From NCBI RefSeq assembly GCF_003334315.1, contig NZ_QOWR01000071.1: a stretch of 19,819 nt of DNA; one strand, 5' to 3'. The translations under genes were made by a program, and so were the position numbers. Below, one piece after another: positions 1 to 19,819 of the stretch. The notes below the pieces were generated by a model that was given only the letters and a program-made list of their open reading frames with translations, had not been told where the DNA came from and did not search any database. Positions within the stretch are counted from its first letter, which is position 1. Every line of letters starts with the position of its first letter. The stretch comes from Escherichia coli (GTDB lineage: Bacteria; Pseudomonadota; Gammaproteobacteria; Enterobacterales; Enterobacteriaceae).

Positions 1-149
1 GGTTGAGAAGCGGTGTAAGTGAACTGCAGTTGCCATGTTTTACGGCAGTGAGAGCAGAGATAGCGCTGATGTCCGGCGGTGCTTTTGCCGTTACGCACCA
101 CCCCGTCAGTAGCTGAACAGGAGGGACAGCTGATAGAAACAGAAGCCAC
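1..149 (-). CDS. insA: IS1 InsA, N-terminal part (partial CDS, runs off window start)
   Basis: GTG start at 149..147 (reverse complement of cac), followed by codons for [48 protein letters not shown] as recalled for InsA. Below the 60-aa track threshold because it is truncated by the window edge. Confidence 0.75.
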
Positions 150-204
150 TGGAGCACCTCAAAAACACCATCATACACTAAATCAGTAAGTTGGCATCAT
201 CACC
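1..204 (-). mobile_element. IS1 insertion sequence, partial (left inverted repeat and insA 5' region); element continues beyond window start
   Basis: Reverse complement of 181-204 reads ggtgatgatgccaacttactgatt, matching the IS1 terminal inverted repeat from memory (one A/C variant); the rest of 1-204 matches the IS1 insA 5' region as I recall it. IS end abuts the yjgL-like frame at 204/205. Confidence 0.85.
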
Positions 205-907
205 TCGATGTTGAAGACTTTTTTAAAATTGCCATATATTAATGATGTAAAAATTCTGGAGTGGTGTTTTAATCAAAGTATGCAATATTCTGATGATACT
301 ACAAAGATAAAGCATGCCCGCTCCGTGATCGATCATATTGATTTTAACTGCGATCAGTCTAAAATAGCTGAGACATTATTTTTCAACCTCAATAAAGAAC
401 CCTATAAAAACAGCCCTGAGTTACAGGAATTGATTTGGGAGAAGTTGGTTGTATATGTCAATGATTTTAACTTAAGCAATCAAGAAAAATCACGCTTAAT
501 ACTAAGGTTATTTGATGATGTTAAGTTGCTATTTAATGAAGTGTCTGTCAGCATTTTAGTAAATGATATTTTTTTTGAAGGATTTTTTCATGAAGCAACC
601 TGATTTTGCGAAGTGGTACTTCTATCAATTACTTAAGAAGTATGAGGGCGAACAGCTGTATCTTAATGAGTTAGGATATGTTTATGGTAATGAAGAAAAA
701 ACAAATGAAATTGTAAAAAAACATCCGGGTTATGTCATTAAGATTTTTGAAGAAAAGATGGGTAATGAATTAAAAATTAGAACAAGAATGATGAAAATCC
801 TCCGGAATGGCAAAATCAATATATATGAATATATTAATAATGAACAGTTGGGAAAATTAAATCCTCCGGAAGATTTACGTATAGTAATAGAAAAATTTGG
901 GTGGTAG
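205..907 (+). pseudogene. AT-rich ORF remnant truncated at its 5' end by IS1 and split into two frames (208-603, 563-907); position matches yjgL of K-12 by synteny only
   Basis: Reading frame is open from the IS1 boundary (stop at 187-189 lies inside IS1) into the 131-aa ORF. A second 114-aa ORF overlaps in another frame near a T8 homopolymer (about 568-575). Low GC, F/N/K/I-rich. Lies upstream of and divergent in strand from argI, as yjgL does in K-12. Confidence 0.5.
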
Positions 908-984: not shown

Positions 985-1989
985 TTATTTACTGAGCGTC
1001 GCGACCATCACCGCTTTGATGGTATGCATACGGTTTTCCGCCTGATCAAAAACAATGCTGGCGGCAGATTCGAAGACCTCATCAGTCACTTCCATTCCGC
1101 CATGTAGGCCAAATTCTTCCGCCATTTTCTTACCAAGCGTCGTTTGGTCGTCATGAAACGCGGGCAGGCAGTGGAGGAATTTGACCTCCGGGTTACCAGT
1201 CAACTGCATCATCTTGCTGTTCACCTGATAATCACGCAGCAATGCAATCCGTTCCGCCCATTTCTCTTTTGCTTCACCCATCGACACCCATACATCGGTA
1301 TAGATAAAGTCAGCACCTTCAACTCCTTTGGCTACATCTTCCGTCAGCGTAATATCCCCGCCATTTTGCTGTGCCAGGGCGCGGCATTCCGTAACCAGCG
1401 CAGCTTCCGGCCAGCATGCCTTTGGCGCGACCAGACGCAAATCCAGACCGGTAAGCGCCGCAGCTTCAAGCATCGAGTTTCCCATGTTGTTACGTGCGTC
1501 ACCTGCATAGACCAGCGTCATTTCGTTGAATGTTTTACCGGGCAAATGCTCTTGCATGGTGAGAAGATCCGCCAGCAGCTGGGTGGGGTGGAACTCATTG
1601 GTCAGGCCGTTCCATACTGGCACGCCAGCGTATTCCGCCAGTGTTTCGACAATCTCCTGACCATAGCCGCGATACTGAATACCGTCATACATGCGACCAA
1701 GCACGCGGGCAGTGTCTTTAATCGACTCTTTATGACCAATCTGGCTGCCGCTTGGGCCGAGATAAGTAACGCGAGCACCCTGGTCATATGCGGCAACTTC
1801 GAAAGAGCATCGGGTACGAGTCGAGTCTTTTTCGAAGATGAGCGCGATGTTTTTACCAGTGAGTTTGGCTTCTTCTTTACCACTTTTCTTATCGGCTTTC
1901 AGCTTCGCGGCTAACTGCAGCAGGCTGTTGAGTTCAGCTGGCGTGAAATCGAGTAATTTCAGGAAATGCTTATGATAAAACCCAGACAT
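985..1989 (-). CDS. argI: Ornithine carbamoyltransferase chain I
   Basis: 334-aa ORF beginning [35 protein letters not shown] and containing STRTR and HCLP motifs; N-terminus matches ArgI rather than ArgF (MSDLYKKHFL) from memory. Synteny with rraB. Confidence 0.95.
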
Positions 1990-2150: not shown

Positions 2151-2567
2151 ATGGCAAACCCGGAACAACTGGAAGAACAGCGTGAAGAAACACGTTTGAT
2201 TATTGAAGAATTACTGGAAGATGGCAGCGATCCGGACGCGCTGTACACCATCGAACACCATCTTTCCGCAGACGATCTGGAAACCCTGGAAAAAGCAGCA
2301 GTTGAAGCGTTTAAACTTGGTTATGAAGTGACCGATCCAGAAGAGCTGGAAGTTGAAGATGGTGATATCGTGATTTGCTGCGACATCCTCAGCGAGTGCG
2401 CGTTGAATGCCGATCTGATCGATGCCCAGGTTGAACAACTGATGACGCTGGCGGAGAAATTTGACGTTGAGTACGACGGTTGGGGCACTTACTTTGAAGA
2501 TCCTAACGGCGAAGACGGCGACGATGAAGATTTTGTCGATGAAGACGATGACGGGGTTCGCCACTAA
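2151..2567 (+). CDS. rraB: Regulator of RNase E activity B (acidic protein)
   Basis: 138-aa highly acidic [40 protein letters not shown] with a D/E-rich C-terminus; divergent from argI as in K-12. Confidence 0.9.
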
Positions 2568-2580
2568 TTAATTGATTAAA

Positions 2581-2614
2581 ATGCCCGATAGCACACACTA
2601 GCGGGCATTTTTTT
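2581..2614. terminator. Intrinsic terminator shared by convergent rraB and yjgM
   Basis: Stem atgcccg / cgggcat (2581-2587 / 2602-2608) followed by a T7 run at 2608-2614; the yjgM stop codon overlaps the T-tract. Confidence 0.7.
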
Positions 2615-3116
2615 AGAGTTCGCGTAGCATCCGCACTTCACAATCGACATGGCCCGTGCAGCCAAGCGCATAGTCGATATGCTCAAAGCCCAAATGCTCA
2701 TAAAGCGCAATGGCTTCCTTTAAAAAAGCGGTCGTTTCCAGATAGCAGCGTTTGAAGCCCATCTCTCGTGCCTGCTCCATCGCCATTAAGGCCAGTTTTT
2801 TCGCCAGCCCTTTACCGCGAATAGCCGGAAGAAAATACATCTTTTGCAGTTCGCAAATGTCCGATTCACTACCTGCTAATGGCGCAATCCCACCGCCGCC
2901 GACCACTTCACCATCGAACTCAACCACCCAATATGCATGGCCAGGCTGACTATACACTTGATACAACTCGTCAAGGTTCGGATCGGCGACGGTGTAGCCT
3001 TTATCAGCGGTAAGACCGTATTCGGCGGATACCTGACGAATGACGCGGGCGATAGCGGGATTATCCTGCTGCGTCAGGCGACGCATTACAGGTGATTGCG
3101 GCGCAATGTTATTCAT
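2613..3116 (-). CDS. yjgM: GNAT-family N-acetyltransferase
   Basis: 167-aa ORF with an acetyl-CoA-binding style motif ([25 protein letters not shown]); position between rraB and yjgN. Confidence 0.85.
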
Positions 3117-3308
3117 AGTTTAACCCAATAAAAATAAAGTAATTATACATTTGTTTAATACCACTCTCTTCTTACGTGCGCAAGCGACTTATAAAGTAAT
3201 AAAGTTTTTGCCAGCCTATTACTGATAAGAGTATTGTAACGTGGCAGAACATTTTACTGTCTGTATCTATAAATTATATCAATGGATTTTTTAATTCAGG
3301 GAATTTTT

Positions 3309-4505
3309 ATGGCTCAAGTTATTAATGAAATGGATGTTCCGTCCCATTCGTTTGTTTTTCATGGCACAGGTGAGAGATATTTTCTTATTTGTGTGGTGAA
3401 TGTGTTGTTAACGATTATAACGCTAGGTATCTATTTACCATGGGCATTAATGAAATGTAAGCGTTATCTCTATGCTAATATGGAAGTTAACGGACAACGA
3501 TTTTCTTATGGAATTACCGGTGGGAATGTTTTTGTTAGTTGTCTTGTTTTTGTTTTTTTCTATTTCGCAATCTTAATGACAGTGTCAGCAGATATGCCGC
3601 TTGTTGGCTGTGTTTTGACTTTGTCACTGTTGGTTTTGCTTATATTTATGGCAGCAAAAGGACTGCGTTATCAGGCCTTGATGACCAGTCTCAACGGCGT
3701 AAGATTTAGTTTTAATTGCTCTTTGAAAGGGTTCTGGTGGGTAACCTTTTTCTTGCCGATTTTAATGGCCATTGGGATGGGGACTGTTTTCTTTATCTCG
3801 ACAAAGATGCTACATGCCAATAGTTCAAGTAGTGTTATTATATCTGTGGTTCTGATGGCAATAGTTGGTATTGTTTCCATTGGTATTTTTAATGGTACTT
3901 TATATAGTCTGGTAATGAGTTTTCTCTGGAGCAATACCAGTTTCGGTATACATCGTTTCAAGGTGAAATTAGATACTACGTATTGTATAAAATATGCCAT
4001 TCTCGCATTTTTAGCTTTATTACCTTTTCTCGCTGTTGCTGGTTATATTATCTTCGATCAAATATTAAATGCGTATGATAGTTTTGTGTATGCAAATGAT
4101 GATATTGAGAATTTACAGCAATTTATGGAAATGCAACGTAAAATGATAATCGCGCAGTTAATCTATTATTTTGGGATTGCTGTTAGCACCAGTTATTTAA
4201 CGGTGTCGTTGCGAAATCATTTTATGAGCAACCTGTCACTGAATGATGGGCGTATTCGTTTTCGCTCAACTTTAACTTACCACGGTATGCTTTATCGCAT
4301 GTGTGCGTTGGTAGTGATATCCGGGATTACGGGCGGTCTGGCTTATCCACTGCTGAAAATATGGATGATTGACTGGCAGGCAAAAAATACGTATTTGCTG
4401 GGCGATTTGGATGACCTTCCTTTAATCAATAAAGAAGAACAACCAGATAAAGGCTTCTTAGCCAGTATTTCACGGGGAATTATGCCTTCTTTACCATTTC
4501 TGTAA
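3309..4505 (+). CDS. yjgN: Inner membrane protein, DUF898 family
   Basis: Multi-pass hydrophobic ORF. Start placed at ATG 3309 (MAQVINEMDVPSHSFVFHGTGERYF) rather than the track start 3282, giving 398 aa as recalled for YjgN. Confidence 0.85.
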   Translation: MAQVINEMDVPSHSFVFHGTGERYFLICVVNVLLTIITLGIYLPWALMKCKRYLYANMEVNGQRFSYGITGGNVFVSCLVFVFFYFAILMTVSADMPLVGCVLTLSLLVLLIFMAAKGLRYQALMTSLNGVRFSFNCSLKGFWWVTFFLPILMAIGMGTVFFISTKMLHANSSSSVIISVVLMAIVGIVSIGIFNGTLYSLVMSFLWSNTSFGIHRFKVKLDTTYCIKYAILAFLALLPFLAVAGYIIFDQILNAYDSFVYANDDIENLQQFMEMQRKMIIAQLIYYFGIAVSTSYLTVSLRNHFMSNLSLNDGRIRFRSTLTYHGMLYRMCALVVISGITGGLAYPLLKIWMIDWQAKNTYLLGDLDDLPLINKEEQPDKGFLASISRGIMPSLPFL

Positions 4506-4510
4506 GAGAT

Positions 4511-4545
4511 AAAAAAGGCCGGAGCATTCTCCGGCCTTCGTTTTC
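4511..4545. terminator. Bidirectional intrinsic terminator between yjgN and valS
   Basis: 10-bp stem aaggccggag / ctccggcctt (4515-4524 / 4529-4538) with a 4-nt loop; A6 on one side and T4 on the other give U-tracts on both strands. Confidence 0.8.
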
Positions 4546-4558
4546 ATCACGGTGTTGA

Positions 4559-7414
4559 TTACAGCGCGGCGATAACAGCCTGCTGTTCAATCAGCTTCGC
4601 TTTCGCTTCCGCATAGCCTTCCAGCTTCTCACGCTCTTTCGCGATGACCGCTTCCGGTGCGCGGGCGACAAAGCCTTCATTCGCCAGCTTGTTCTCGATA
4701 CGGCTGATTTCGCCTTCGATCTTCGCCACTTCTTTCGCCAGACGCGCCAGCTCATCTTCTTTGTTGATGAGGCCAGCCATCGGGATCAGCAGCTCTGCGC
4801 CGTCGATGATCTTCGTAACGGAAACCGGACCTTTGTCATCGGCAGGCAGCACGGTGATGCTTTCCAGACGCGCCAGGGTTTGCAGGAAGCCACGGTTTTC
4901 ATTTACGCGACGTTCTGCATCCGCGCTGCAACCACGCAGCAGCAGCTCCAGCGGTTTGCCCGGCGCGATGTTCATTTCTGCACGGATGTTACGTACCGCA
5001 ACGATCGCCTGTTTCAGCCATTCGGTGTCGGCCAGTGCGGCTTCATCAACCTGAGATGCATCGTACTGCGGGAACGGCTGCAGCATGATGGTGTCGGCAG
5101 TGATACCGCAAAGTACTTTCACACGCTGCCAGATGGTTTCGGTGATGAACGGAATGATCGGATGCGCGAGGCGCAGCAGACCTTCCAGTACAGTCACCAG
5201 CGTATGGCGAGTACCGCGCAGTTCGGCTTCGGTGCCACCGTTCATTACCGGCTTGGTCAGCTCCAGATACCAGTCACAGAACTGGTTCCAGGTGAACTCA
5301 TACAGAATGCCTGCAGCGATATCGAAGCGGAAGCTGTCCAGCGCTTCGCGGTACGCTTTGATGGTCTGGTTGAACTCTGCCAGAATCCAGCGGTCCGCCA
5401 GCGACAGTGTCATTTCGCCGCCGTTAAAGCCGCAATCCTGACCTTCTGTGTTCATCAGCACAAAGCGGCTGGCGTTCCACAGCTTGTTACAGAAGTTACG
5501 GTAACCTTCCAGGCGCTTCATATCCCAGTTGATGTCACGACCGGTAGACGCCAGCGCCGCCAGGGTGAAGCGCAGGGCATCGGTGCCGTGCGGCTCAATG
5601 CCGTTCGGGAACTGTTTCTCGGTGCGCTTACGGATTTTGTCCGCCAGCTGCGGCTGCATCATATTGCCGGTACGTTTTTCCAGCAGTTCTGGCAGCGAAA
5701 TACCGTCAACCATATCCAGCGGGTCGATAACGTTACCCTTGGATTTGGACATCTTCTGGCCTTCGTCGTCACGAATCAGACCGGTCATGTAAACAGTGTG
5801 GAACGGCACCTGCGGTTTGCCATTTTCATCTTTGATGAAGTGCATGGTCATCATGATCATGCGGGCAATCCAGAAGAAGATGATGTCGAAGCCGGATACC
5901 ATCACGCTGGTTGGGTGGAACTGACGCAGGGCGTCGGTGTTTTCCGGCCAGCCAAGGGTAGAGAAGGTCCACAGTGCAGAAGAGAACCAGGTGTCGAGAA
6001 CGTCTTCGTCCTGACGCAGGGCAACGTCGGCACCGAGGTTATTTTCCTTGCGCACTTCTTCTTCGTTGCGGCCAACATAAACGTTACCTGCTTCGTCGTA
6101 CCATGCAGGGATACGGTGACCCCACCACAGCTGACGAGAGATACACCAGTCCTGAATATCGCGCATCCAGGAGAAGTACATGTTTTCGTACTGCTTCGGT
6201 ACGAACTGAATGTCGCCGTTCTCAACCGCTTCAACCGCCGGTTTCGCCAGTACATCGGCACGCACGTACCACTGGTCGGTCAGCATTGGTTCGATAACTA
6301 CGCCGCCACGGTCGCCGTAAGGAACGGTCAGGTCGTGCGGTTTAATTTCTTCCAGCAGGCCGAGTGCGTCAACCGCAGCAACGACTGCTTTACGTGCAGC
6401 AAAACGCTCGAGTTTCTGGAACTCTGCCGGGATTTCGCTGGAATAAACGTCAGATTCGTTACCTTTGGTATCGAACACCTGGGCGCTTTCACGGATATCG
6501 CCGTCAAAGGTCAGGATGTTGATCATCGGCAGCGCGTGACGTTTACCCACTTCATAGTCGTTAAAGTCGTGCGCCGGAGTGATTTTCACGCAGCCGGTGC
6601 CTTTTTCCATGTCGGCGTGTTCGTCGCCAACGATCGGAATACGACGGTTAACCAGCGGTAGAATGACATATTTGCCAATCAGGTCTTTGTAACGCGGATC
6701 TTCCGGGTTAACGGCCACGCCGGTATCGCCCAACAGGGTTTCCGGACGGGTAGTCGCAACCACCAGATAATCTTTACCGTCTGCGGTTTTCGCGCCGTCA
6801 GCCAGCGGATAGCGGATGTGCCACATCGAACCTTTCGATTCGCGGTTTTCCACTTCCAGGTCAGAGATAGCGGTGCGCAGTTTCGGATCCCAGTTTACCA
6901 GGCGTTTGCCACGGTAAATCAGGTCTTCTTTATACAGACGAACGAAAACTTCTTTCACCGCATTGGACAGGCCTTCGTCCATCGTGAAGCGTTCACGCTC
7001 CCAGTCGACGGAGTTGCCGAGACGGCGCATCTGACGGGTAATGGTGCCGCCGGATTCCGCTTTCCATTCCCAAATTTTGTCGATGAAAGCTTCGCGGCCG
7101 TAGTCGTGACGGGTTTTACCTTCTTCTGCGGCAATCTTGCGCTCAACGACCATCTGGGTAGCGATCCCGGCGTGGTCAGTACCGACCTGCCACAGGGTGT
7201 TTTTGCCCTGCATGCGCTGATAGCGGATCATGGTATCCATGATGGTTTGCTGGAAGGCGTGACCCATATGCAAACTGCCGGTGACGTTCGGCGGCGGGAT
7301 CATGATGCAGAAACTTTCCTGGCTTTCATCGCCATTAGGCTTAAAGTAGCCCTGCTTTTCCCAGTGCTCGTAAAGCGGCTGTTCGATATCTTGTGGGTTG
7401 TATGTCTTTTCCAT
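4559..7414 (-). CDS. valS: Valine--tRNA ligase
   Basis: 951-aa ORF with the class I aaRS HIGH-type motif ([12 protein letters not shown]) and KMSKS; length and sequence match ValS. Confidence 0.97.
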
Positions 7415-7857
7415 TATTTCCAGGTTGCCGTATTCAGGTTGAAACCAGCCACGCGGTAGGCTTTATAGCGTTCGCGCGCCAGTTGTTTCAGAGAATCTTC
7501 ATAAGGAACGAAGTCTACCACTTCTGTGAAAGCGGTGGCAAAATCTGCAAAGCTTGTTCGCAGACTAATCAATATATCGCGCGGGCTGCTGCTGCGTTTT
7601 TGCGGCCAGGCGATCTCCACCGGCGCACCGCCGCGCGGTCCTTCTCCCGCTAAATTATGCGGAACAAAGCTTTCTGCCGGACGCGCCCACAGGGCTTCAT
7701 CCAGCCGGTAAGCCTGCTTTTCATCTTCACAGGCGATGAGCACGCGCTTACCGCTGCGCCAACGTTCTGCGGCAATTTCACACACCAGCTGCTCAACGGC
7801 GCTTAAGCCATCGACGGTGGTGTCATTGTCCAGAAGGTAGAACGTCGCGTTTTTCAT
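7414..7857 (-). CDS. holC: DNA polymerase III chi subunit
   Basis: 147-aa [49 protein letters not shown]; its stop overlaps the valS start (ATGA at 7414), consistent with the holC-valS operon. Confidence 0.93.
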
Positions 7858-7889
7858 AAATGGGGCTTCTTGTGGTGGATTTAAATACG

Positions 7890-9725
<1,836 letters not shown>

Positions 9726-9988
9726 CTACGCTCCTGAATCTTAAAGACAACGGCGGTGGCTACAGATAGAATTGCAAGCTTTCGTAACTCATGTCCGCTG
9801 TTGCGATGACTTCGTGTTAATCTTAACGTTATTACGGCATTGGCACGTCAGAACAAAATCTGAGAGGTGAATCCGTTGAGTATAATTATCTTAGCGACGA
9901 TTTCGACGACTCAAGAGAATAAATGACGTTTAAGCCATGAAACAAGCTAAAATCCTGCAAAAGACGAGTTTTTACGGGCGTATTTAAA

Positions 9989-11089
9989 GTGATAATCATA
10001 AGATATCTGGTGCGGGAGACGCTCAAAAGCCAGCTGGCGATACTCTTCATCTTGCTTTTGATCTTCTTCTGTCAAAAGTTAGTGAGGATCCTCGGCGCAG
10101 CGGTTGACGGCGATATTCCGGCGAATCTGGTGCTCTCCCTTCTCGGGTTGGGCGTGCCGGAAATGGCGCAGCTTATCCTGCCATTAAGCCTGTTCCTCGG
10201 GCTGCTGATGACGCTGGGCAAACTGTATACCGAAAGTGAAATTACGGTAATGCATGCCTGCGGCCTGAGCAAAGCGGTTCTGGTGAAAGCGGCAATGATC
10301 CTTGCGGTATTCACGGCAATCGTCGCGGCGGTTAACGTGATGTGGGCGGGACCGTGGTCATCGCGTCATCAGGATGAAGTGTTAGCAGAAGCGAAAGCGA
10401 ACCCTGGCATGGCGGCGCTGGCGCAAGGGCAATTCCAGCAAGCGACTAATGGCAGCTCGGTGCTGTTCATCGAAAGCGTTGACGGCAGCGATTTCAAAGA
10501 TGTGTTCCTCGCACAAATTCGACCAAAAGGTAATGCACGTCCTTCTGTGGTGGTGGCCGATTCCGGACATTTAACCCAGCTGCGCGACGGCTCCCAGGTC
10601 GTCACTCTCAACCAGGGAACGCGCTTCGAAGGCACTGCACTGTTACGTGATTTCCGCATTACGGATTTCCAGGATTATCAGGCGATCATTGGTCACCAGG
10701 CGGTGGCGCTCGACCCGAACGATACCGACCAGATGGACATGCGCACATTATGGAACACTGACACCGATCGTGCTCGCGCAGAACTGAACTGGCGTATCAC
10801 GTTGGTATTCACCGTGTTTATGATGGCACTTATGGTCGTACCGCTGAGCGTGGTTAACCCACGTCAGGGACGCGTACTGTCGATGCTGCCAGCCATGCTG
10901 CTGTATCTACTTTTCTTCCTGATCCAGACCTCCCTGAAATCGAACGGCGGTAAAGGTAAGCTGGACCCGACGCTGTGGATGTGGACCGTTAACCTGATTT
11001 ATCTGGCTTTGGCGATTGTTCTCAACCTTTGGGACACCGTGCCGGTCCGCCGCCTGCGCGCCAGTTTTTCGCGTAAAGGAGCGGTGTGA
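9989..11089 (+). CDS. lptF: LPS export ABC transporter permease LptF
   Basis: 366-aa membrane ORF starting at GTG 9989 (MIIIRYLVRETLKSQLAILFILLL), immediately followed by lptG. Confidence 0.93.
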   Translation: MIIIRYLVRETLKSQLAILFILLLIFFCQKLVRILGAAVDGDIPANLVLSLLGLGVPEMAQLILPLSLFLGLLMTLGKLYTESEITVMHACGLSKAVLVKAAMILAVFTAIVAAVNVMWAGPWSSRHQDEVLAEAKANPGMAALAQGQFQQATNGSSVLFIESVDGSDFKDVFLAQIRPKGNARPSVVVADSGHLTQLRDGSQVVTLNQGTRFEGTALLRDFRITDFQDYQAIIGHQAVALDPNDTDQMDMRTLWNTDTDRARAELNWRITLVFTVFMMALMVVPLSVVNPRQGRVLSMLPAMLLYLLFFLIQTSLKSNGGKGKLDPTLWMWTVNLIYLALAIVLNLWDTVPVRRLRASFSRKGAV

Positions 11090-12171
11090 TGCAACCTTTT
11101 GGCGTACTTGACCGCTATATCGGTAAAACTATTTTCACCACCATCATGATGACGCTGTTCATGCTGGTGTCGCTGTCGGGCATTATCAAGTTTGTCGATC
11201 AGTTGAAAAAAGCCGGGCAGGGGAGTTACGACGCGTTAGGCGCAGGAATGTATACCTTGCTGAGCGTGCCGAAAGATGTGCAGATCTTCTTCCCGATGGC
11301 GGCTCTGCTTGGGGCGTTGCTTGGTCTTGGGATGCTGGCGCAGCGCAGCGAACTGGTGGTGATGCAGGCTTCTGGTTTTACCCGTATGCAGGTGGCGCTG
11401 TCGGTGATGAAAACCGCCATTCCGCTGGTCTTGCTGACGATGGCGATTGGCGAATGGGTTGCGCCGCAGGGCGAACAGATGGCGCGTAACTACCGTGCGC
11501 AGGCGATGTACGGCGGCTCGTTGCTCTCTACCCAGCAAGGCTTATGGGCGAAAGATGGCAACAACTTCGTCTACATTGAGCGGGTTAAAGGTGACGAAGA
11601 GTTAGGTGGCATCAGCATTTATGCCTTTAACGAGAATCGTCGTCTGCAATCCGTACGCTATGCCGCTACTGCGAAGTTTGACCCGGAACATAAAGTCTGG
11701 CGTCTGTCGCAGGTTGATGAATCTGATCTGACCAATCCGAAACAGATTACCGGTTCGCAGACGGTGAGCGGCACCTGGAAAACCAACCTCACGCCAGACA
11801 AACTGGGCGTGGTGGCGCTGGACCCGGATGCACTCTCCATTAGCGGTTTGCACAACTATGTGAAGTATCTGAAGTCGAGCGGTCAGGATGCCGGACGTTA
11901 TCAGCTCAACATGTGGAGCAAAATCTTCCAGCCGCTATCCGTGGCGGTGATGATGCTGATGGCGCTGTCGTTCATCTTTGGCCCACTGCGTAGCGTACCG
12001 ATGGGCGTGCGTGTGGTCACCGGTATCAGCTTCGGTTTTGTCTTCTACGTACTGGACCAGATCTTCGGCCCGCTGACGTTGGTTTATGGCATCCCGCCGA
12101 TCATCGGCGCACTGTTGCCAAGCGCCAGCTTCTTCTTAATCAGCCTGTGGCTGTTAATGAGAAAATCGTAA
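11089..12171 (+). CDS. lptG: LPS export ABC transporter permease LptG
   Basis: ATG at 11089 overlaps the lptF stop (GTGATG); product begins MQPFGVLDRYIGKTIFTTIMMTLFMLVSLSG, 360 aa. Confidence 0.93.
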   Translation: MQPFGVLDRYIGKTIFTTIMMTLFMLVSLSGIIKFVDQLKKAGQGSYDALGAGMYTLLSVPKDVQIFFPMAALLGALLGLGMLAQRSELVVMQASGFTRMQVALSVMKTAIPLVLLTMAIGEWVAPQGEQMARNYRAQAMYGGSLLSTQQGLWAKDGNNFVYIERVKGDEELGGISIYAFNENRRLQSVRYAATAKFDPEHKVWRLSQVDESDLTNPKQITGSQTVSGTWKTNLTPDKLGVVALDPDALSISGLHNYVKYLKSSGQDAGRYQLNMWSKIFQPLSVAVMMLMALSFIFGPLRSVPMGVRVVTGISFGFVFYVLDQIFGPLTLVYGIPPIIGALLPSASFFLISLWLLMRKS

Positions 12172-12289
12172 CCAAGCAAGGGAGCGAAAGCTCCCTTTCA
12201 CATTGTTGATAAAGTCAAATACGAGTTCGATCGGTCCCCTCGCCCCTTTGGGGAGAGGGTTAGGGTGAGGGGCACAGACCGCACCTGAC

Positions 12290-13792
12290 TTACCTTCTTC
12301 TCCCCCCCAGCAAACTCCCCAACATCCCGCGTACAATCTGATTCGTCACCTGGCGAGCGGCGCTTTTGGCCATTGTTTGCACCACACCATCTTTCTTCCC
12401 GCCGCGTGGTCCGGTAGTGCCAAACAAAATATCCTTCAATCCACCAAGAATACCGTCATCCACCGCCACCTCTTTCCCTTTCGCGGCAGGATTATTTTGC
12501 TGCTCGGTACTGGCCTGAAAGCCTTTTTGCAACATCTCATAGGCGGATTCTCGGTCCACCTCATCCTCATATTTGCCATACACCGGGGAGTGATTAATCA
12601 GGCCATTACGCTCATCTTCCGTCACCGGCCCCATTCGCGAACAAGGCGCGATCACCATCGCCCGCTCCACCACTGAAGGACTTCCTTTCACATCAAGAAA
12701 CGAGATTAACGCCTCGCCGGTGCCCAGTTCCTGAATCGCCTTTTCGGTATCAAACGCCGGATTGGCCCGCATGGTTTGCGCCGCAGCTTTTACCGCTTTC
12801 TGATCTTTGGGCGTAAAAGCACGCAAAGCGTGTTGAACGCGATTACCGAGCTGCCCGAGCACGTTATCCGGAATATCAGACGGGTTTTGCGAAACGAACC
12901 AGACGCCCACGCCTTTTGAGCGAATAAGCCTTATCACCTGCTCAATCTTATCCAGCAGTACCTGCGGTGCGTCATTAAACAGCAGATGTGCTTCGTCGAA
13001 GAAAAACACCAGTTTCGGCTTCTCCAGATCGCCTGCTTCCGGCAATTGTTCATACAACTCCGAGAGCATCCACAACAGGCTGGCGGCATATAGTTTCGGC
13101 ATCTGATAAAGCTTTTCGGCGCTGAGGATATTGATAACGCCTTTACCGTTGGCATCGGTGCGCATCCAGTCTTTGATATCCAGCATCGGCTCGCCAAAGA
13201 AATGCTCCGCACCTTGTTGCTCCAGCGACAGTAATCCGCGCTGGATGGCACCAACCGATGCGCTACTGATATTTCCGTACTGATTCTGGAAAGATTTGGC
13301 GTTATCGCCGATGTACTGGGTAATCGCCCGCAAATCTTTAAAGTCGAGCAGTAACAGCCCCTGATCGTCAGCAATGCGGAAGATGATATTCAGCACGCCA
13401 GACTGCACATCGTTGAGATTCAACAGCCGCGCCAGCAACAGCGGCCCCAGGTCTGAAACCGTCGCCCGCACCGGATGGCCTTTCTCGCCAAAGATATCCC
13501 ACACCACCACCGGATTGGCATGCGGTTGCCAGTCATTGACGCCGATATTTTTAAGCCTTGTGAGCAGTTTTTCCGACGCCGTTCCTGCCTGCGCGATACC
13601 GGTCAGATCGCCTTTCACATCAGCCATAAACACCGGCACGCCGATTTCCGACAATGACTCTGCCAGTTTTTGCAGCGTAACGGTTTTACCCGTCCCCGTT
13701 GCGCCAGTAATCAGCCCGTGACGGTTAGCCATTCCCGGCAGTAAAAACAGTTCTGTGTCCGGCGTGCGGGCAATTAACAGGGGTTCGCTCAT
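12290..13792 (-). CDS. yjgR: DUF853-family P-loop NTPase
   Basis: Walker A GATGTGKT near the N-terminus. Start placed at ATG 13792 ([16 protein letters not shown]), giving 500 aa, rather than the longer track ORF from 13840. Confidence 0.85.
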
Positions 13793-13891
13793 GAGATTTC
13801 CTCCAGTTTCCTGCCTGGAGTATAGGCAACGGCTGTGCACTCTTCACCGCTAAATTCAGCAGATTGCGAGACGCCTTCCAAAGAGATTTAA

Positions 13892-13915
13892 GTGCCGGGC
13901 GACAGGCACCCGGCA
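13892..13915 (-). terminator. Putative hairpin terminator downstream of ahr
   Basis: GC-rich inverted repeat tgccggg / cccggca (13893-13899 / 13909-13915), 7 bp 3' of the ahr stop; the minus-strand flank after it is moderately T-rich. Confidence 0.45.
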
Positions 13916-13921
13916 AAGGGA

Positions 13922-14941
13922 TCAGAAGTCGGCTTTCAGGACCACGCGGTAGCGCGCTTTACCATCGCGTACATGCTGGATGGCGTCGTTAATTTTCGAC
14001 ATCGGGAACAGTTCGGTGGTCGGCGCAACCTTGCTGCGGGCGGCAAAACGCATCAGCTTACGCAGCTCATAAGGCGTGCCGGTAGCAGAACCAGAGACGC
14101 TGCGATCGCCCGCAATTAACGTAAAGGCCGGAACAGACAGCGGCGTGAGAACCGCACCGACCGTATGGAAATTACCGCCATAGGTCAGCGCCTCAAAATA
14201 AGGCTGCCAGTCGAGGCTGACGTTGACGGTGTTGATAATGAGATCAAACTGCCCCGCCAGTGCTTTCAGTGCCTGCGGATCGCGGCTATTCACCACTTTA
14301 TCGGCACCCATCGCCAGTACTTCCTGCTCTTTCGCCGGATTAGAACTAAAGGCCGTCACCTCGCATCCCATTGCGTGCAGAAGTTTTATAGCGATATGCC
14401 CCAGCCCGCCAATACCAATTACCCCAACGCGGCTGGTAGCAGTGATATGGTGCATCAACAGTGGTTTAAAGACCGTGATACCACCACACAACAGCGGCCC
14501 GGCGGACTCGATATCAATATTTTCTGGCAGTGGAATCACCCATTGCCAGTCCGCACGCAACTTCTCGGCAAAACCACCACGATTCATAATTGTTGGCACC
14601 GCACCTTGCTCGCAGTTGATCTGATTACCGCTAATACAGGCGTCGCAGTGACCACAGCTACGCGCCGTCCAGCCAATCCCGACACGCTGACCGACCTGCA
14701 AACCTTTATCCTGCGCGGCGCTCCCGAGTGCCACCACGCGCCCAATCACCTCATGCCCGGCAACCAGCGGATATTGTGAAAATCCCCATTCGTTATCGAT
14801 CATCGACAGATCGGAATGGCAGATCCCGCAGTAATCCACCTGCACTTCAACATCTTGTGGCTTCAGCTCACCGGGATCGTACTCATAAACTTCCAGTTCG
14901 CCGCCCGCTTCTTTTGCGGCATAGCTTTTTATCATCGACAT
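13922..14941 (-). CDS. ahr: NADPH-dependent aldehyde reductase, zinc-type alcohol dehydrogenase family
   Basis: Start at ATG 14941 ([26 protein letters not shown]), 339 aa; contains the Zn-ADH motif [12 protein letters not shown] and the Rossmann motif [10 protein letters not shown]. Lies directly upstream of leuX as yjgB/ahr does in K-12. Confidence 0.9.
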
Positions 14942-15136: not shown

Positions 15137-15221
15137 GCCGAAGTGGCGAAATCGGTAGACGCAGTTGATTCAAAATCAACCGTAGAAATACGTGCCGGTT
15201 CGAGTCCGGCCTTCGGCACCA
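15137..15221 (+). tRNA. leuX: tRNA-Leu (anticodon CAA)
   Basis: GCCGAAGTGGCGAAATCGGTAGACGCAGTTGATTCAAAATCAACCGTAGAAATACGTGCCGGTTCGAGTCCGGCCTTCGGCACCA: cloverleaf with long variable arm, anticodon loop TTCAAAA giving CAA, and 3' CCA. Confidence 0.95.
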
Positions 15222-15407: not shown

Positions 15408-16673
15408 ATGGCGTTAACAGATATCAAGGTCAGAACAGCCAAGCCAATGGATAAGCAGTACAAACTGACCGATGGCAGCGGTATGCACCTGCTTGTCCAT
15501 CCTAATGGTTCTAAGTACTGGCGTTTGCAGTACCGTTATGATGGCAAGCAAAAGATGTTGGCACTTGGGATTTACCCTGAAATAACACTGGCGGATGCCA
15601 GAGCACGTCGTGACGACGCGCGTAAGCTGCTAGCGAATGGCGTCGATCCGGGAGACAAAAAGAAAAATGATAAGGTTGAACAGAGTAAAGCACGAACCTT
15701 TAAAGAGGTCGCGATCGAGTGGCATGGCACCAATAAAAAGTGGTCTGAAGATCACGCCCATCGTGTGCTAAAAAGCTTGGAAGATAATCTCTTCGCGGCA
15801 CTTGGTGAGCGTAATATCGCTGAGCTAAAAACTCGTGATTTATTAGTACCCATTAAAGCCGTAGAGACATCTGGACGTCTTGAAGTGGCTTCCCGCCTTC
15901 AACAGCGCACCACGGCCATCATGCGTTATGCAGTGCAAAGCGGGTTAATTGATTACAATCCGGCGCAAGAGATGGCGGGGGCGGTTGCTTCCAGTAATCG
16001 ACAGCATCGTCCGGCGCTGGAGTTAAGGCGTATCCCTGAGTTGCTTGAGAAAATAGACAGCTATACCGGCAGGCCGTTAACCCGCTGGGCGACAGAACTC
16101 ACTCTGCTTATCTTTATTCGGTCCAGTGAGCTGCGTTTTGCTCGCTGGTCAGAAATCGATTTTGAAACGTCAATGTGGACTATCCCGCCCGAGCGAGAGC
16201 CTATTCCTGATGTGAAACATTCTCAGCGAGGATCAAAGATGCATACACCGCATCTGGTGCCGCTTTCAAAGCAGGCGCTGGCGATCCTGAAGCAGATAAA
16301 ACAGTTCTGTGGCGAACATGAGCTGATTTTTATTGGCGATCACGATCCGCGTAAGCCCATGAGCGAGAACACGGTAAACAGTGCGCTACGGGTGATGGGT
16401 TATGACACTAAGGTTGAAGTTTGCGGCCACGGCTTCCGTACAATGGCCTGTAGTTCGTTAATTGAGTCAGGACTATGGTCGAAGGATGCGGTGGAAAGGC
16501 AGATGAGCCATATGGAACGCAATTCGGTGAGGGCGGCGTATATCCATAAAGCGGAACATCTGGATGAGCGCAAGCTGATGTTGCGGTGGTGGGCGGATTT
16601 TCTGGATGCGAACCGGGAGAAAGGGATTACGCCGTTTGACTACGCGAAGATCAATCGGGGTAATGGCGAGTGA
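15408..16673 (+). CDS. P4-type tyrosine integrase (site-specific recombinase) at the leuX tRNA
   Basis: 421-aa ORF with strong SD (agggagggg) before the ATG; catalytic-domain signatures HGFR and RAAYIH (His-X-X-Arg ... Tyr); begins about 190 bp after the tRNA 3' end, the typical layout for P4-like integrative islands. Confidence 0.9.
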   Translation: MALTDIKVRTAKPMDKQYKLTDGSGMHLLVHPNGSKYWRLQYRYDGKQKMLALGIYPEITLADARARRDDARKLLANGVDPGDKKKNDKVEQSKARTFKEVAIEWHGTNKKWSEDHAHRVLKSLEDNLFAALGERNIAELKTRDLLVPIKAVETSGRLEVASRLQQRTTAIMRYAVQSGLIDYNPAQEMAGAVASSNRQHRPALELRRIPELLEKIDSYTGRPLTRWATELTLLIFIRSSELRFARWSEIDFETSMWTIPPEREPIPDVKHSQRGSKMHTPHLVPLSKQALAILKQIKQFCGEHELIFIGDHDPRKPMSENTVNSALRVMGYDTKVEVCGHGFRTMACSSLIESGLWSKDAVERQMSHMERNSVRAAYIHKAEHLDERKLMLRWWADFLDANREKGITPFDYAKINRGNGE

Positions 16674-16714
16674 GTTGAATGCCGTTATTCCTCGGCTGAT
16701 GTTTAAATTTAAAA

Positions 16715-16757
16715 GACCAACCAGCCCGCTTAGGACTGGTTGGTCGCTGTATTTTTT
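16715..16757 (+). terminator. Intrinsic terminator after the integrase gene
   Basis: Perfect 10-bp stem gaccaaccag / ctggttggtc (16715-16724 / 16736-16745) followed by a T-run at 16751-16757. Confidence 0.8.
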
Positions 16758-16877
16758 CAGAATTCCATCTGCCAGGTACAGAGCCGTCAGGCAAAATGGA
16801 TGTCTGCAATAATGCCTTGAATGTACATATAGTTGCGAGCATCATCGCAAATATGTGCTCATGGATTCTCCAACGCA

Positions 16878-17756
16878 ATGACCTCTGACAAAACCCTAAA
16901 ACAAGCGATATCAAATATCACCATCTGGCGCAAAGGCGAACAACGTGCGCCACATAAGCCATTATTGCTGCTGTACGTTCTCTCACACTATCGGCAGGGT
17001 CATGGTCGCATGTTTAACTATGGTTCTGAAATCTACGAGCCCCTGTTGGATCTCCTGGAACGTTATGGACCGCAGCGCCGTGACCAGCGCCCGGACATGC
17101 CGTTCTGGCGTCTGAAGGGCGATGGCTTCTGGGAACTACATAACGCGGAACTGTGCTCAACCAGTGGTAGCCGCCAGCCGCCCCGACGTGAACTCATTGA
17201 ATATAATGTCGCTGGTGGATTTGATGCCGATAATTTTGCGTTGGTGGCAAAAAATCACAGGTTAATTGATACGCTGGCTCAGCAGCTCCTGGAGGCGCAT
17301 TTCCCGGCCAGTATTCAGGAAGAGATCGCTGACGAGATGGGTTTTGATATTCGCACCTCTCTCCGTCAACGCGATCCGAAGTTTCGCCAGATGGTGCTAC
17401 GTGCTTACAATTATCAGTGCGCTATCTGCGGCTTTAACATGCGCCACGACAATGCGCCGATTGCTCTGGAAGCCGCTCATATCAGATGGAAGCAGCACCA
17501 TGGCCCTTGCGAAGTACCTAATGGCCTGGCATTGTGTGCAATCCACCATAAAGCGTTTGATCGCGGTTCGATTGGCCTGGATGAAAATATGCGTGTGGTG
17601 GTTTCCGGTGCGGTAAATGGTGGTGGAGTGGTACAGCGACTGTTCTGGGATTTTGCGGGAAAGGCGATTGCGTTGCCACCGGTTAAAGAAAATTATCCGG
17701 GCGAGCAGTTTGTTGAATGGCACAGAAAAGAGGTGTTCAGAGGAGAGGGAATCTGA
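16878..17756 (+). CDS. Two-domain protein: N-terminal uncharacterised (possible DNA-modification reader) domain fused to a C-terminal HNH nuclease; candidate type IV-like restriction or defence nuclease
   Basis: HNH motif readable directly in the C-terminus: YQCAICGF ... LEAAHIRW ... NGLALCAIHHKAFD. The N-terminal roughly 170 aa has no HNH features but distinctive motifs (PHKPLLLLYVL, MPFWRLKGDGFWEL). Start chosen at the first ATG (16878); the track ORF begins at a TTG at 16833. First cargo gene after the integrase. Confidence 0.6.
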   Translation: MTSDKTLKQAISNITIWRKGEQRAPHKPLLLLYVLSHYRQGHGRMFNYGSEIYEPLLDLLERYGPQRRDQRPDMPFWRLKGDGFWELHNAELCSTSGSRQPPRRELIEYNVAGGFDADNFALVAKNHRLIDTLAQQLLEAHFPASIQEEIADEMGFDIRTSLRQRDPKFRQMVLRAYNYQCAICGFNMRHDNAPIALEAAHIRWKQHHGPCEVPNGLALCAIHHKAFDRGSIGLDENMRVVVSGAVNGGGVVQRLFWDFAGKAIALPPVKENYPGEQFVEWHRKEVFRGEGI

Positions 17757-17825
17757 AATAGATTGATTTTTTTCTTTAGATTATTAAGTTAGTTATTGAT
17801 AACGGCTTTATTATGTGGAGGGTAT

Positions 17826-18146
17826 ATGGTTAGGCGTAATGTGAAATGGTTGTCTTTCTTTATTTTTATTTCTATTCTGTCTTTATTTCGCGGGTGGTCG
17901 TTTATTAAACAGTTTCATCTGTCGGCATTTACTGTACTTGCTGTATTTATTTATGCGTTGTATAGCTATATAAGAATTTCAACTTTTGTAAATAAGATGG
18001 AGTTAAATAATAAATTTATTGTTTTTCTTAGGTTGAAGAAATTTGTTTTGTTTTTTAAGCAAGGGACTAAGCTCACTATTCTGGAAAGAAATATTGTCTT
18101 TTTTTCAGTTTATATACCTTGTCTGCTTATCATGTGCTTATATTAG
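17826..18146 (+). CDS. Hypothetical small hydrophobic protein (about 106 aa, 2 predicted TM segments); may be a composition artefact
   Basis: ATG at 17826 preceded by GGAGG (17817-17821); hydrophobic stretches LSFFIFISILSLF and AFTVLAVFIYALYSYI. The region is very AT-rich, which favours F/I/L codons, so coding status is uncertain. Confidence 0.3.
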   Translation: MVRRNVKWLSFFIFISILSLFRGWSFIKQFHLSAFTVLAVFIYALYSYIRISTFVNKMELNNKFIVFLRLKKFVLFFKQGTKLTILERNIVFFSVYIPCLLIMCLY

Positions 18147-18447
18147 GTAAAATGCATGTCATTAATAAATGGTTAAATGTGGGTTTGTATAACTAATTCA
18201 TAGGTGTCATTCCAGTTTTATTAGTTAAATTTGTCGTTCTGCTGCTTCAATGTGCCGAAAATAATTTTTTGTTCTTAAATAAGTATTGGCTGATAAATTG
18301 TCTCTCCTTTAATAAAATTTGAAGTTGTTCACGGTTTATAGGGTTCTTCAATTATTAATGTTTTTTCTTTGTTAGCATCTTTCCTCAATGCTATGTATCT
18401 TTATAAAGATACGACCTAATCTTATTTGTCATTTTTAAAATCCTGTA

Positions 18448-18944
18448 TTATATTGTGAAGTATAATAAGCTAAGGAACGAGCCGAAAATAAAAACATGTC
18501 TAAATATTGCTAATCCAACCAGTTCATCAAGGCGACAGCCTTTCCATGATGCATTCCTCCAGCCTAGCTGAAACAATGTTGACCATGATAGAATAAATAT
18601 TCCGGTGGCGCTAACGGCGTCTTTCCATTCTAATGGATAGATAATCCGAAATTTCCCTGAGTAAAATCCAATCGCAATTACTATAAAAAGCACACCCAAC
18701 ATTATTAGCACTGACGCAAGAATGGACTTTCTTAAGTCATCACAATACTCTTCGAGGGAGTGTTTGTGATCATCTGGATTTAGACTGTATTTCCCCGCCT
18801 CAAGTTTTCTCTTATATTCATCCTTCTCAAGTTCAAAAGCCATCTTATTGATAGCACCAAGCGTAATAAATTTTTCCTTGTTGAAGAAAAAATAAAACAT
18901 TGCTTTATAAATATTTTCTTTTTTAGGTAGTTGTGCTGTGTTCA
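18448..18944 (-). CDS. Hypothetical membrane protein (about 165 aa; soluble charged N-terminal part plus 3 predicted TM helices)
   Basis: ORF on the minus strand with ATG at 18944 (MNTAQLPKKENIYKAMFYFFF); the track's longer version starts at a TTG at 18981. Predicted TM segments ILASVLIMLGVLFIVIAIGFY, GIFILSWSTLFQLGW and LVGLAIFRHVFIFGSFLSLLYF. No recognisable family from sequence alone. Confidence 0.4.
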
Positions 18945-18970
18945 TATTCTCATAAAAAATAAGTAACGAT

Positions 18971-19000: not shown

Positions 19001-19366
19001 TCACATCGTCCAATGATTCGAAATAACTTCCGCTTGTTTCAAAATTAACTCCACCGCACCCGGCGTTTTATCTGGCGGATACTTATACCGACGCAGAGTC
19101 TGGCGAACCAAGATACGCAGCCTTGCACGAACGCTCTCGCGCACCTGCCAGTCAACGGTAGTTGATTGCCTCAACTTCAAGGTGACTTCTATCGCCAGTT
19201 TCTTAAGCACCTCATCCCCTAACTCTCGGACGGCACTTTCGTTTTCTGCCAGTGCGTCGTAGAAAGCGATTTCGTCAGGATTCAGGCCAAGCGCATCATC
19301 ACGCTCCATTGCAGACTGAAAATCCTTCGCCATCTGGATCAGCTCTTCAATCACCTGCGCCGTCTC
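19001..19366 (-). pseudogene. 3' remnant (about 122 codons) of a type I restriction enzyme R-subunit-like gene, truncated by IS1 insertion
   Basis: ORF ...LNPDEIAFYDALAENESAVRELGDEVLKKLAIEVTLKLRQSTTVDWQVRESVRARLRILVRQTLRRYKYPPDK... resembles the conserved HsdR C-terminal domain (DUF3387-like) as I recall it. The frame stays open upstream right to the IS1 boundary at 19366/19367, as expected for an insertion into a longer gene. Confidence 0.5.
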
Positions 19367-19819
19367 GGTAATGGTCCCAACTTATTGATAGTGTTTTATG
19401 TTCAGATAATGCCCGATTACTTTGTCATGCAGCTCCACCGATTTTGAGAACGACAGCGACTTCCGTCCCAGCCGTGCCAGGTGCTGCCTCAGATTCAGGT
19501 TATGCCGCTCAATTCGCTGCGTATATCGCTTGCTGATTACGTGCAGCTTTCCCTTCAGGCGGGATTCATACAGCGGCCAGCCATCCGTCATCCATATCAC
19601 CACGTCAAAGGGTGACAGCAGGCTCATAAGACGCCCCAGCGTCGCCATCGTGCGTTCACCGAATACGTGCGCAACAACCGTCTTCCGGAGCCTGTCATAC
19701 GCGTAAAACAGCCAGCGCTGGCGCGATTTAGCCCCGACATAGCCCCACTGTTCGTCCATTTCCGCGCAGACGATGACGTCACTGCCCGGCTGTATGCGCG
19801 AGGTTACCGACTGCGGCCT
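19367..19819 (-). mobile_element. IS1 insertion sequence, partial (right inverted repeat and insB); same orientation as the copy at 1-204; continues beyond window end
   Basis: 19367 onward reads ggtaatggtcccaacttattgatagtgttttatgttcagataatg, the reverse complement of the IS1 right end from memory (variant at 2-3 positions); the remainder to the window edge matches insB. Confidence 0.85.
19382..19819 (-). CDS. insB: IS1 InsB (transposase C-terminal part; partial CDS truncated by window end)
   Basis: Translation ...[125 protein letters not shown] matches IS1 InsB; the frame continues open to the window edge. Confidence 0.9.

Follow-up and report, generated by a model that had tools for sequence, protein, structure and literature searches.

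The window (the whole 19,819-nucleotide stretch of Escherichia coli DNA analyzed here) begins and ends inside IS1. It is best explained by two separate IS1 copies, belonging to different natural isoforms and situated in dispensable DNA, that flank a conserved and partly essential block of the chromosome, with contig ends set by an assembler working at k = 77. We put the probability of this explanation, taken as a whole, at roughly 0.85. The host lineage would be a phylogroup-A-like E. coli in which the element has multiplied to dozens of copies. The left copy would have landed in yjgL, an AT-rich gene that was already frameshifted and is repeatedly hit by insertion sequences elsewhere, or else would mark the end point of a rearrangement there; the right copy would have landed in hsdR of the type I system of the leuX island. 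The assembler would then have extended into each IS1 as far as the point where the two isoforms cease to differ, and ended the contig there.

Table 1. Coordinates of the features in the 19,819-nucleotide window
Feature	Position	Strand	Description and basis
IRL-proximal 204 bp of IS1	1..204	-	IRL variant GGTGATGATGCC and intact first 49 insA codons (translation)
Host bases abutting IRL	205..213		TCGATGTTG; predicted 9-bp target duplication if a simple insertion
3' remnant of divergent yjgL allele	205..907	+	Codons 292-524 of the 524-aa form (BLASTP)
T8 homopolymer frameshifting the yjgL remnant	569..576	+	T8 in L004, L005, L006; T7 in L001, L002, L003
argI, ornithine carbamoyltransferase	985..1989	-	Intact; PGAP label 'argF'; synteny with K-12 argI
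Conserved block rraB, yjgM, yjgN, valS, holC, pepA, lptF, lptG, yjgR, ahr	2151..14941		ORFs, synteny
leuX, tRNA-Leu(CAA)	15137..15221	+	ARAGORN, Rfam; island attachment site
leuX island	15408..18945		P4-type integrase, 15408-16673; HNH endonuclease, 16878-17756; 165-aa protein, 18448-18945 (-)
hsdR 3' remnant, type I restriction subunit R	19001..19366	-	Last 121 codons; T1RH-like_C domain (Pfam PF11867)
Host bases abutting IRR	19358..19366		CGCCGTCTC; predicted 9-bp target duplication
IRR-proximal 453 bp of second IS1	19367..19819	-	IRR variant GGTAATGGTCCC and intact insB' 3' part

The two edges of the window belong to different IS1 isoforms

A first reading of the letters alone (hereafter, the sequence-only reading) had placed IS1 at both edges, in direct orientation and some 19.2 kb apart. 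Alignment bore this out. Both fragments align to one and the same full 768-bp IS1 of strain 2017.17.03CC, the left one at 100% (204/204; L001 positions 3875-4078) and the right one, in the same orientation, at 98.5% (L001 3311-3763); both lie on the minus strand and enclose 19,162 bp of unique DNA. The left fragment is also 100% identical to an IS1 of RCAD0514 (L026 22436-22639). For the right fragment, the best match among complete E. coli genomes was 99.8% (452/453), found in at least 25 genomes, and 784 records matched it at 99% or better; its isoform is that of E. coli C and PSS-10, with one private synonymous base at position 19649. Identities of the two fragments to IS1A of K-12 are 98.7% and 99.5%. 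With ends 98.5 to 100% identical to annotated IS1 copies, and with the 5' part of insA and the 3' part of insB' intact, the fragments are ordinary members of the IS1 family.

IS1 ends in imperfect inverted repeats of about 23 to 30 bp. Both termini are present at the junctions, begin GGT(G/A)ATG, and carry their substitutions at positions 8 to 10. The IRL differs from the canonical GGTGATGCTGCC by a single substitution (C8A) and the IRR from the canonical GGTAATGACTCC by three (A8G/C9T/T10C), so that both ends depart from IS1A to IS1E of K-12, which have identical ends (PMC12903888). That the ends are variant had been remarked on in the sequence-only reading; the variants are real, but they are those of common isoforms found at several sites, and the IRR bears three substitutions rather than the two marked there. 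IS1F was ruled out as the origin of the end variants (47 and 22 mismatches).

The sequence-only reading had also proposed comparing the two copies with each other. This comparison assigned them to different isoforms, whose full copies are distinguished by IS1 positions 8, 9, 10, 52, 373, 376, 642, 645, 651, 700, and 761 and are identical over positions 377 to 641. The left isoform occurs base for base at three sites in relatives, namely at the point corresponding to window positions 506-514 in 2017.17.03CC and at 608 and 18938 in RCAD0514, while the right isoform (bar the base at 19649) adjoins a different hsdR in E. coli C and parB-like genes in PSS-10. Because they recur at different sites in other E. 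coli, both end variants are natural mobile isoforms and not anomalies. In E. coli C, the copy of the right isoform (L023, 1149005-1155457) seems to fall about 33 bp short of the full 768 bp; it is located 30 bp downstream of another type I hsdR, which is intact, a second and coincidental association with a restriction locus.

Between them the two copies contribute 657 of the 768 bp of IS1 to the window, IS1 positions 454 to 564 (111 nt) being in neither fragment. The portions of insA and insB' that are in the window are open in translation; the A6C programmed frameshift site presumably falls within the missing positions. We infer that both IS1 copies are complete.

The fragments share an orientation, have no overlap, and leave only those 111 nt of IS1 unaccounted for, and the assembly graph of a segment lying between direct repeats could, topologically, also describe a circle. 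They could on these grounds be the two halves of a single IS1, coming from a circular or permuted 19.9-kb molecule or from a misjoin, which the sequence-only reading had named as a way in which it could be wrong. However, each fragment matches its own isoform: the left fragment has 5 mismatches in 204 positions to full copies of the right-hand isoform, and the right fragment has 7 in 453 to full copies of the left-hand one. Although a hybrid IS1 is formally possible, the DNA between the fragments consists of essential chromosomal genes in conserved synteny in every relative. We consider a single IS1 extremely improbable.

The window ends fall 77 nt past the last isoform differences

The window stops at IS1 position 453 (= 376 + 77) and starts at IS1 position 565 (= 642 - 77). 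Each end thus lies exactly 77 nt past the final base at which the two isoforms differ. In a k = 77 graph, the 77-mers at 377-453 and 565-641 are the merge and split nodes of the isoform paths, and a contig must therefore end there. Contigs that end in collapsed repeats are standard behavior of de Bruijn assemblers, and it is hard to attribute to chance that both ends should fit one k which is, besides, a standard assembler value. Quite likely, the window represents a whole contig of a short-read assembly. A k = 77 unitig alone would be unable to cross a 231-nt stretch in the right fragment (IS1 53-282) that is common to all isoforms, and hence paired-read repeat resolution must be assumed. A k of 127 was considered for the right end and rejected, as it is off by one there and does not fit the left end, whereas 77 fits both.

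The bracketing is therefore largely an effect of assembly and sampling, since contig ends in a genome rich in IS1 tend to fall within the element. About 36 to 40 IS1 matches per genome were counted in the nearest relatives, the median being about 11, and by our own arithmetic the random placement of some 38 copies yields about five neighboring IS1 pairs within 20 kb per genome, around half of them direct. The view that IS1 bracketing is a notable property of this locus was accordingly not upheld. In all respects, including k = 77 at both ends, the window resembles the IS-bounded contig ends of short-read assemblies of IS-rich enterobacteria.

The left IS1 end lies in a frameshifted yjgL

In agreement with the sequence-only reading, IS1 interrupts a yjgL homolog beside argI. 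By BLASTP, window positions 208-600 match residues 367-493 of K-12 YjgL (E = 3e-65) and positions 563-904 match residues 487-597 (E = 2e-35). An intact 524-aa allele is found in FACU 2024 between tabA and argI, the same neighbors as in K-12, and relative to it the left IS1 cuts the gene before codon 292. This allele is divergent from K-12 YjgL, with 89% identity over the N-terminal 183 residues and 63% over the C-terminal 343. The GC content of the remnant is 30%, compared with 49% over the window's unique DNA; IS1 insertion into AT-rich DNA is classically described, and the left site is AT-rich. NCBIfam and PADLOC returned no family for YjgL, and our literature search returned nothing relevant on IS1 in yjgL.

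The remnant had been taken for one open frame. It is in fact split into two (208-603 and 563-907) by the T8 run. The T8 allele is also present in SRR1122540 and in two metagenome contigs without the window's IS1, and its occurrence in contigs lacking that IS1 shows the frameshift to be a genuine allele rather than a read error. Thus, yjgL may already have been dead before IS1 arrived. Upstream in the yjgL region, two metagenome contigs carry, instead of IS1, what we take by eye to be the end of an IS5.

The left junction (204/205) is exact as judged against FACU 2024, which is uninterrupted at this site and reads ...GGTCATCGAT|TCGATGTTGAAG; the host continues from the junction as GGTCATCGAT|TCGATGTTG. 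The junction is reproduced by Logan contig SRR1122540_251, the product of an independent assembler, which was recovered by an exact-product look-up of the 131-aa yjgL remnant and shows 0 mismatches over 7.9 kb. The two metagenome contigs with the IS5 end came from this look-up as well. Among all 5,426 complete E. coli genomes the exact left junction was absent, the near matches being IS1 copies at other positions in yjgL. No exact match was on record for the predicted product of a fusion between the YjgL N terminus and IS1 (guesses of 320, 304, 303, and 302 aa).

Across strains, the 3' 700 bp of yjgL has IS1 junctions at five different places (in window coordinates, about 191, 205, 506-514, 608, and 794-801). 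The IS1 of AST19 is 14 bp upstream of that in the window; that of 2017.17.03CC, of the left isoform, is flanked by a 9-bp duplication at 506-514; that of the RCAD0514 group is at 608; and that of 13C1065T, at 794-801, is in the opposite orientation. Among the 5,426 complete genomes, at least 63 carry an IS1 end no more than about 1 kb from the yjgL 3' region. This suggests that yjgL is either a recurrent landing site for insertion sequences or a gene whose loss is tolerated or favored.

The right IS1 end lies in hsdR of the leuX island

The target of the right copy, not named in the sequence-only reading, is identified here as hsdR. Window positions 19150-19366 are 100% identical to the 3' end of the intact 1,044-codon hsdR of FACU 2024 (L002 24700-27834), which scores 620 bits to TIGR00348 (cutoff, 285) and 1210 bits to PADLOC REase_I. 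The right junction (19366/19367) is exact when judged against this uninterrupted gene, which reads on as ...GCCGTCTC|AATAGCCCGG. By severing its last 121 codons, the right IS1 would probably abolish restriction by this system.

The right junction was seen in this contig alone, being absent from the 5,426 complete E. coli genomes, where near matches were hsdR genes lacking an IS1, and from the contigs returned by look-ups of the hsdR remnant (117-aa and 110-aa products), all of which lacked the IS1. Most of these contigs have an IS-less truncation of hsdR 12 bp from the window's IS1 site. The same truncation, 12 bp beyond that site, occurs in many E. coli assemblies (142 index blocks; L003 22477-22492 and L007 to L014), where hsdR is joined directly, with no IS, to a WYL/GTPase/CP4-like island segment and leaves the same 117-aa remnant ORF.

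In the leuX island, the ORF at 16878-17756 encodes a phosphorothioate-DNA-binding HNH restriction endonuclease (NCBIfam NF045808, 445 bits; also matched by PADLOC HNH). The leuX island is a small defense island, with this endonuclease adjoining the type I restriction system. Two small ORFs situated between the two, one of 106 aa that is called in relatives and the other of 165 aa (18448-18945), had no family match (for the 165-aa product, in NCBIfam and PADLOC).

The intervening segment is core chromosome in its native context

The gene content between the two IS1 ends (argI, valS, pepA, lptFG, and leuX) had been correctly recognized from the letters and is supported by the ORFs, ARAGORN, and the annotation of relatives. 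The ArgI protein is identical in relatives, and among the proteins encoded in the right half of the window there is no variant private to it in comparison with relatives.

Several features of this segment may be recorded in passing. The L-idonate operon idnRTODK, which in K-12 lies between yjgR and ahr (L019 16562-24210), is missing from window positions 12290-14941 and from close relatives. The holC-pepA intergenic region (7910-8205) contains a tandem array of REP/BIME-type units (96 bp, 3.1 copies) with Rfam naRNA4 matches at 7965-8040 and 8061-8136; the array is about one unit shorter in FACU 2024, 13C1065T, and RCAD0514, and the SRR1122540 Logan contig has a 2-bp indel relative to the window at 7957-7958. 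A match to Rfam Ysr276, a Yersinia antisense small RNA, is found at 8970-9164 on the plus strand (175 bits versus a gathering score of 100). It lies inside pepA, which is on the minus strand, and probably just reflects conservation of the pepA coding sequence.

A search of 5,426 complete E. coli genomes with the 19,162-bp interval gave a match in every one, covering at least 80% of the interval in 1,755. Wherever the flanks were read in a relative, the interval occupies its native locus, with yjgL on one side and the leuX island on the other. FACU 2024, 2017.17.03CC, and L6-21, the complete genomes closest to the window, are 99.9% identical to it over the 19,162 bp, and neither junction is present in them; in FACU 2024, yjgL and hsdR are both intact. 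In the RCAD0514 group, the same block is bracketed by IS1 at 608 and 18938, here in inverted orientation, and RCAD0514 lacks yjgH through tabA and most of yjgL beside its IS1. AST19 lacks the middle of yjgL, and in FACU 2024 an IS1 joins the leuX island to a truncated fimD. What emerges is a block that cannot be lost, flanked on both sides by dispensable DNA in which IS1 accumulates and IS1-linked deletions occur.

Simple insertions or rearrangement end points

IS1 generates direct target duplications of 8 to 9 bp, and we infer that both copies are simple insertions with 9-bp duplications. The term insertion, as used in the sequence-only reading, is apt insofar as clean IS1 termini are found at the junctions, but it already interprets them, and relatives do show IS1-linked deletions here. 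At least one of the IS1 ends might instead be the end point of an IS1-mediated deletion or inversion, the DNA on its far side then not being the 5' part of yjgL or the rest of hsdR. The deletions of RCAD0514 and AST19, the IS1-fimD joint of FACU 2024, the many genomes with an IS-less hsdR truncation 12 bp from the window's IS1 site, and the absence from the record of the yjgL::IS1 fusion product that a simple insertion would create are all in line with such an event. Against this, there is no positive evidence for a deletion or inversion end point, and the fusion look-ups, which need the exact product, say little; at both junctions, moreover, a clean IS1 terminus meets host sequence that the closest relative carries uninterrupted. 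A rearrangement end point at one or both sites thus appears unlikely, if not negligibly so, and simple insertion is the reading that we prefer.

The segment as an IS1-bounded unit

The sequence-only reading had drawn a parallel with argF of K-12 and had raised amplification or transposition as the events that such an arrangement would permit. The parallel is accurate in that argF is located between direct copies of IS1 (IS1B and IS1C, in the cryptic prophage CP4-6), so that here as in K-12 an ornithine carbamoyltransferase gene lies between two direct IS1 copies, but the likeness is coincidental. The argF interval is 11.5 kb of acquired, dispensable prophage DNA flanked by two copies of the same isoform; that of the window comprises 19.2 kb of the core chromosome, includes essential genes, and is flanked by two isoforms, argI being one of some 15 genes in it. 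The insertions in the window are, furthermore, recent and lineage specific, unlike the argF segment of K-12.

The genes valS, lptF, and lptG are essential. In recombination between the direct repeats, a deletion would be lethal because these genes would be lost, leaving duplication as the only viable outcome. This part of the earlier argument is sound. The direct 768-bp repeats, about 98.6% identical, would in principle be able to recombine, and no data point to either deletion or duplication; there is likewise no sign of amplification or transposition, the segment being in its native context in all relatives examined.

That the segment should nevertheless be a functional IS1-bounded unit, amplifiable like argF or mobile like Tn9 and kept for extra copies of argI, valS, lptFG, or leuX, seems to us highly improbable. 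The direct orientation of the ends and the precedent of argF speak for it, as does the IS1 bracketing of the block in a related group of strains; direct pairs of IS1 can mobilize the DNA between them, as in Tn9 (PMC12903888). As in Tn9-type composite transposons, co-oriented IS1 ends flank other DNA in the window, but its interval is at the native locus, with native neighbors, in all genomes compared, and the closest of these lack both IS1 copies. In the RCAD0514 group, the bracketing is at different sites and the copies are inverted, which implies that there is no conserved unit. Finally, about 38 copies per genome give several pairs by chance, and contig breakage accounts for the bracketing of the window.

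Repeated and independent bracketing by IS1 (direct here, inverted in the RCAD0514 group) could also be viewed as the outcome of selection, a notion to which we give very little credence. The selected trait might be conditional tandem amplification in the manner of argF, or the inactivation of yjgL and of the adjacent restriction system; the alternative is that IS1 accumulates neutrally in whatever dispensable DNA is nearest.

Significance

The elements, the disrupted genes, and the phenomenon itself are all known, and the finding is an ordinary one. The window is a draft contig, and its IS1 edges are not to be read as genome architecture. Were amplification of the segment true, it would constitute a second natural case of IS1-mediated dosage change at an ornithine carbamoyltransferase locus, but nothing points there. 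In this strain, the disruption of hsdR in the type I system of the leuX island could lead to restriction deficiency.
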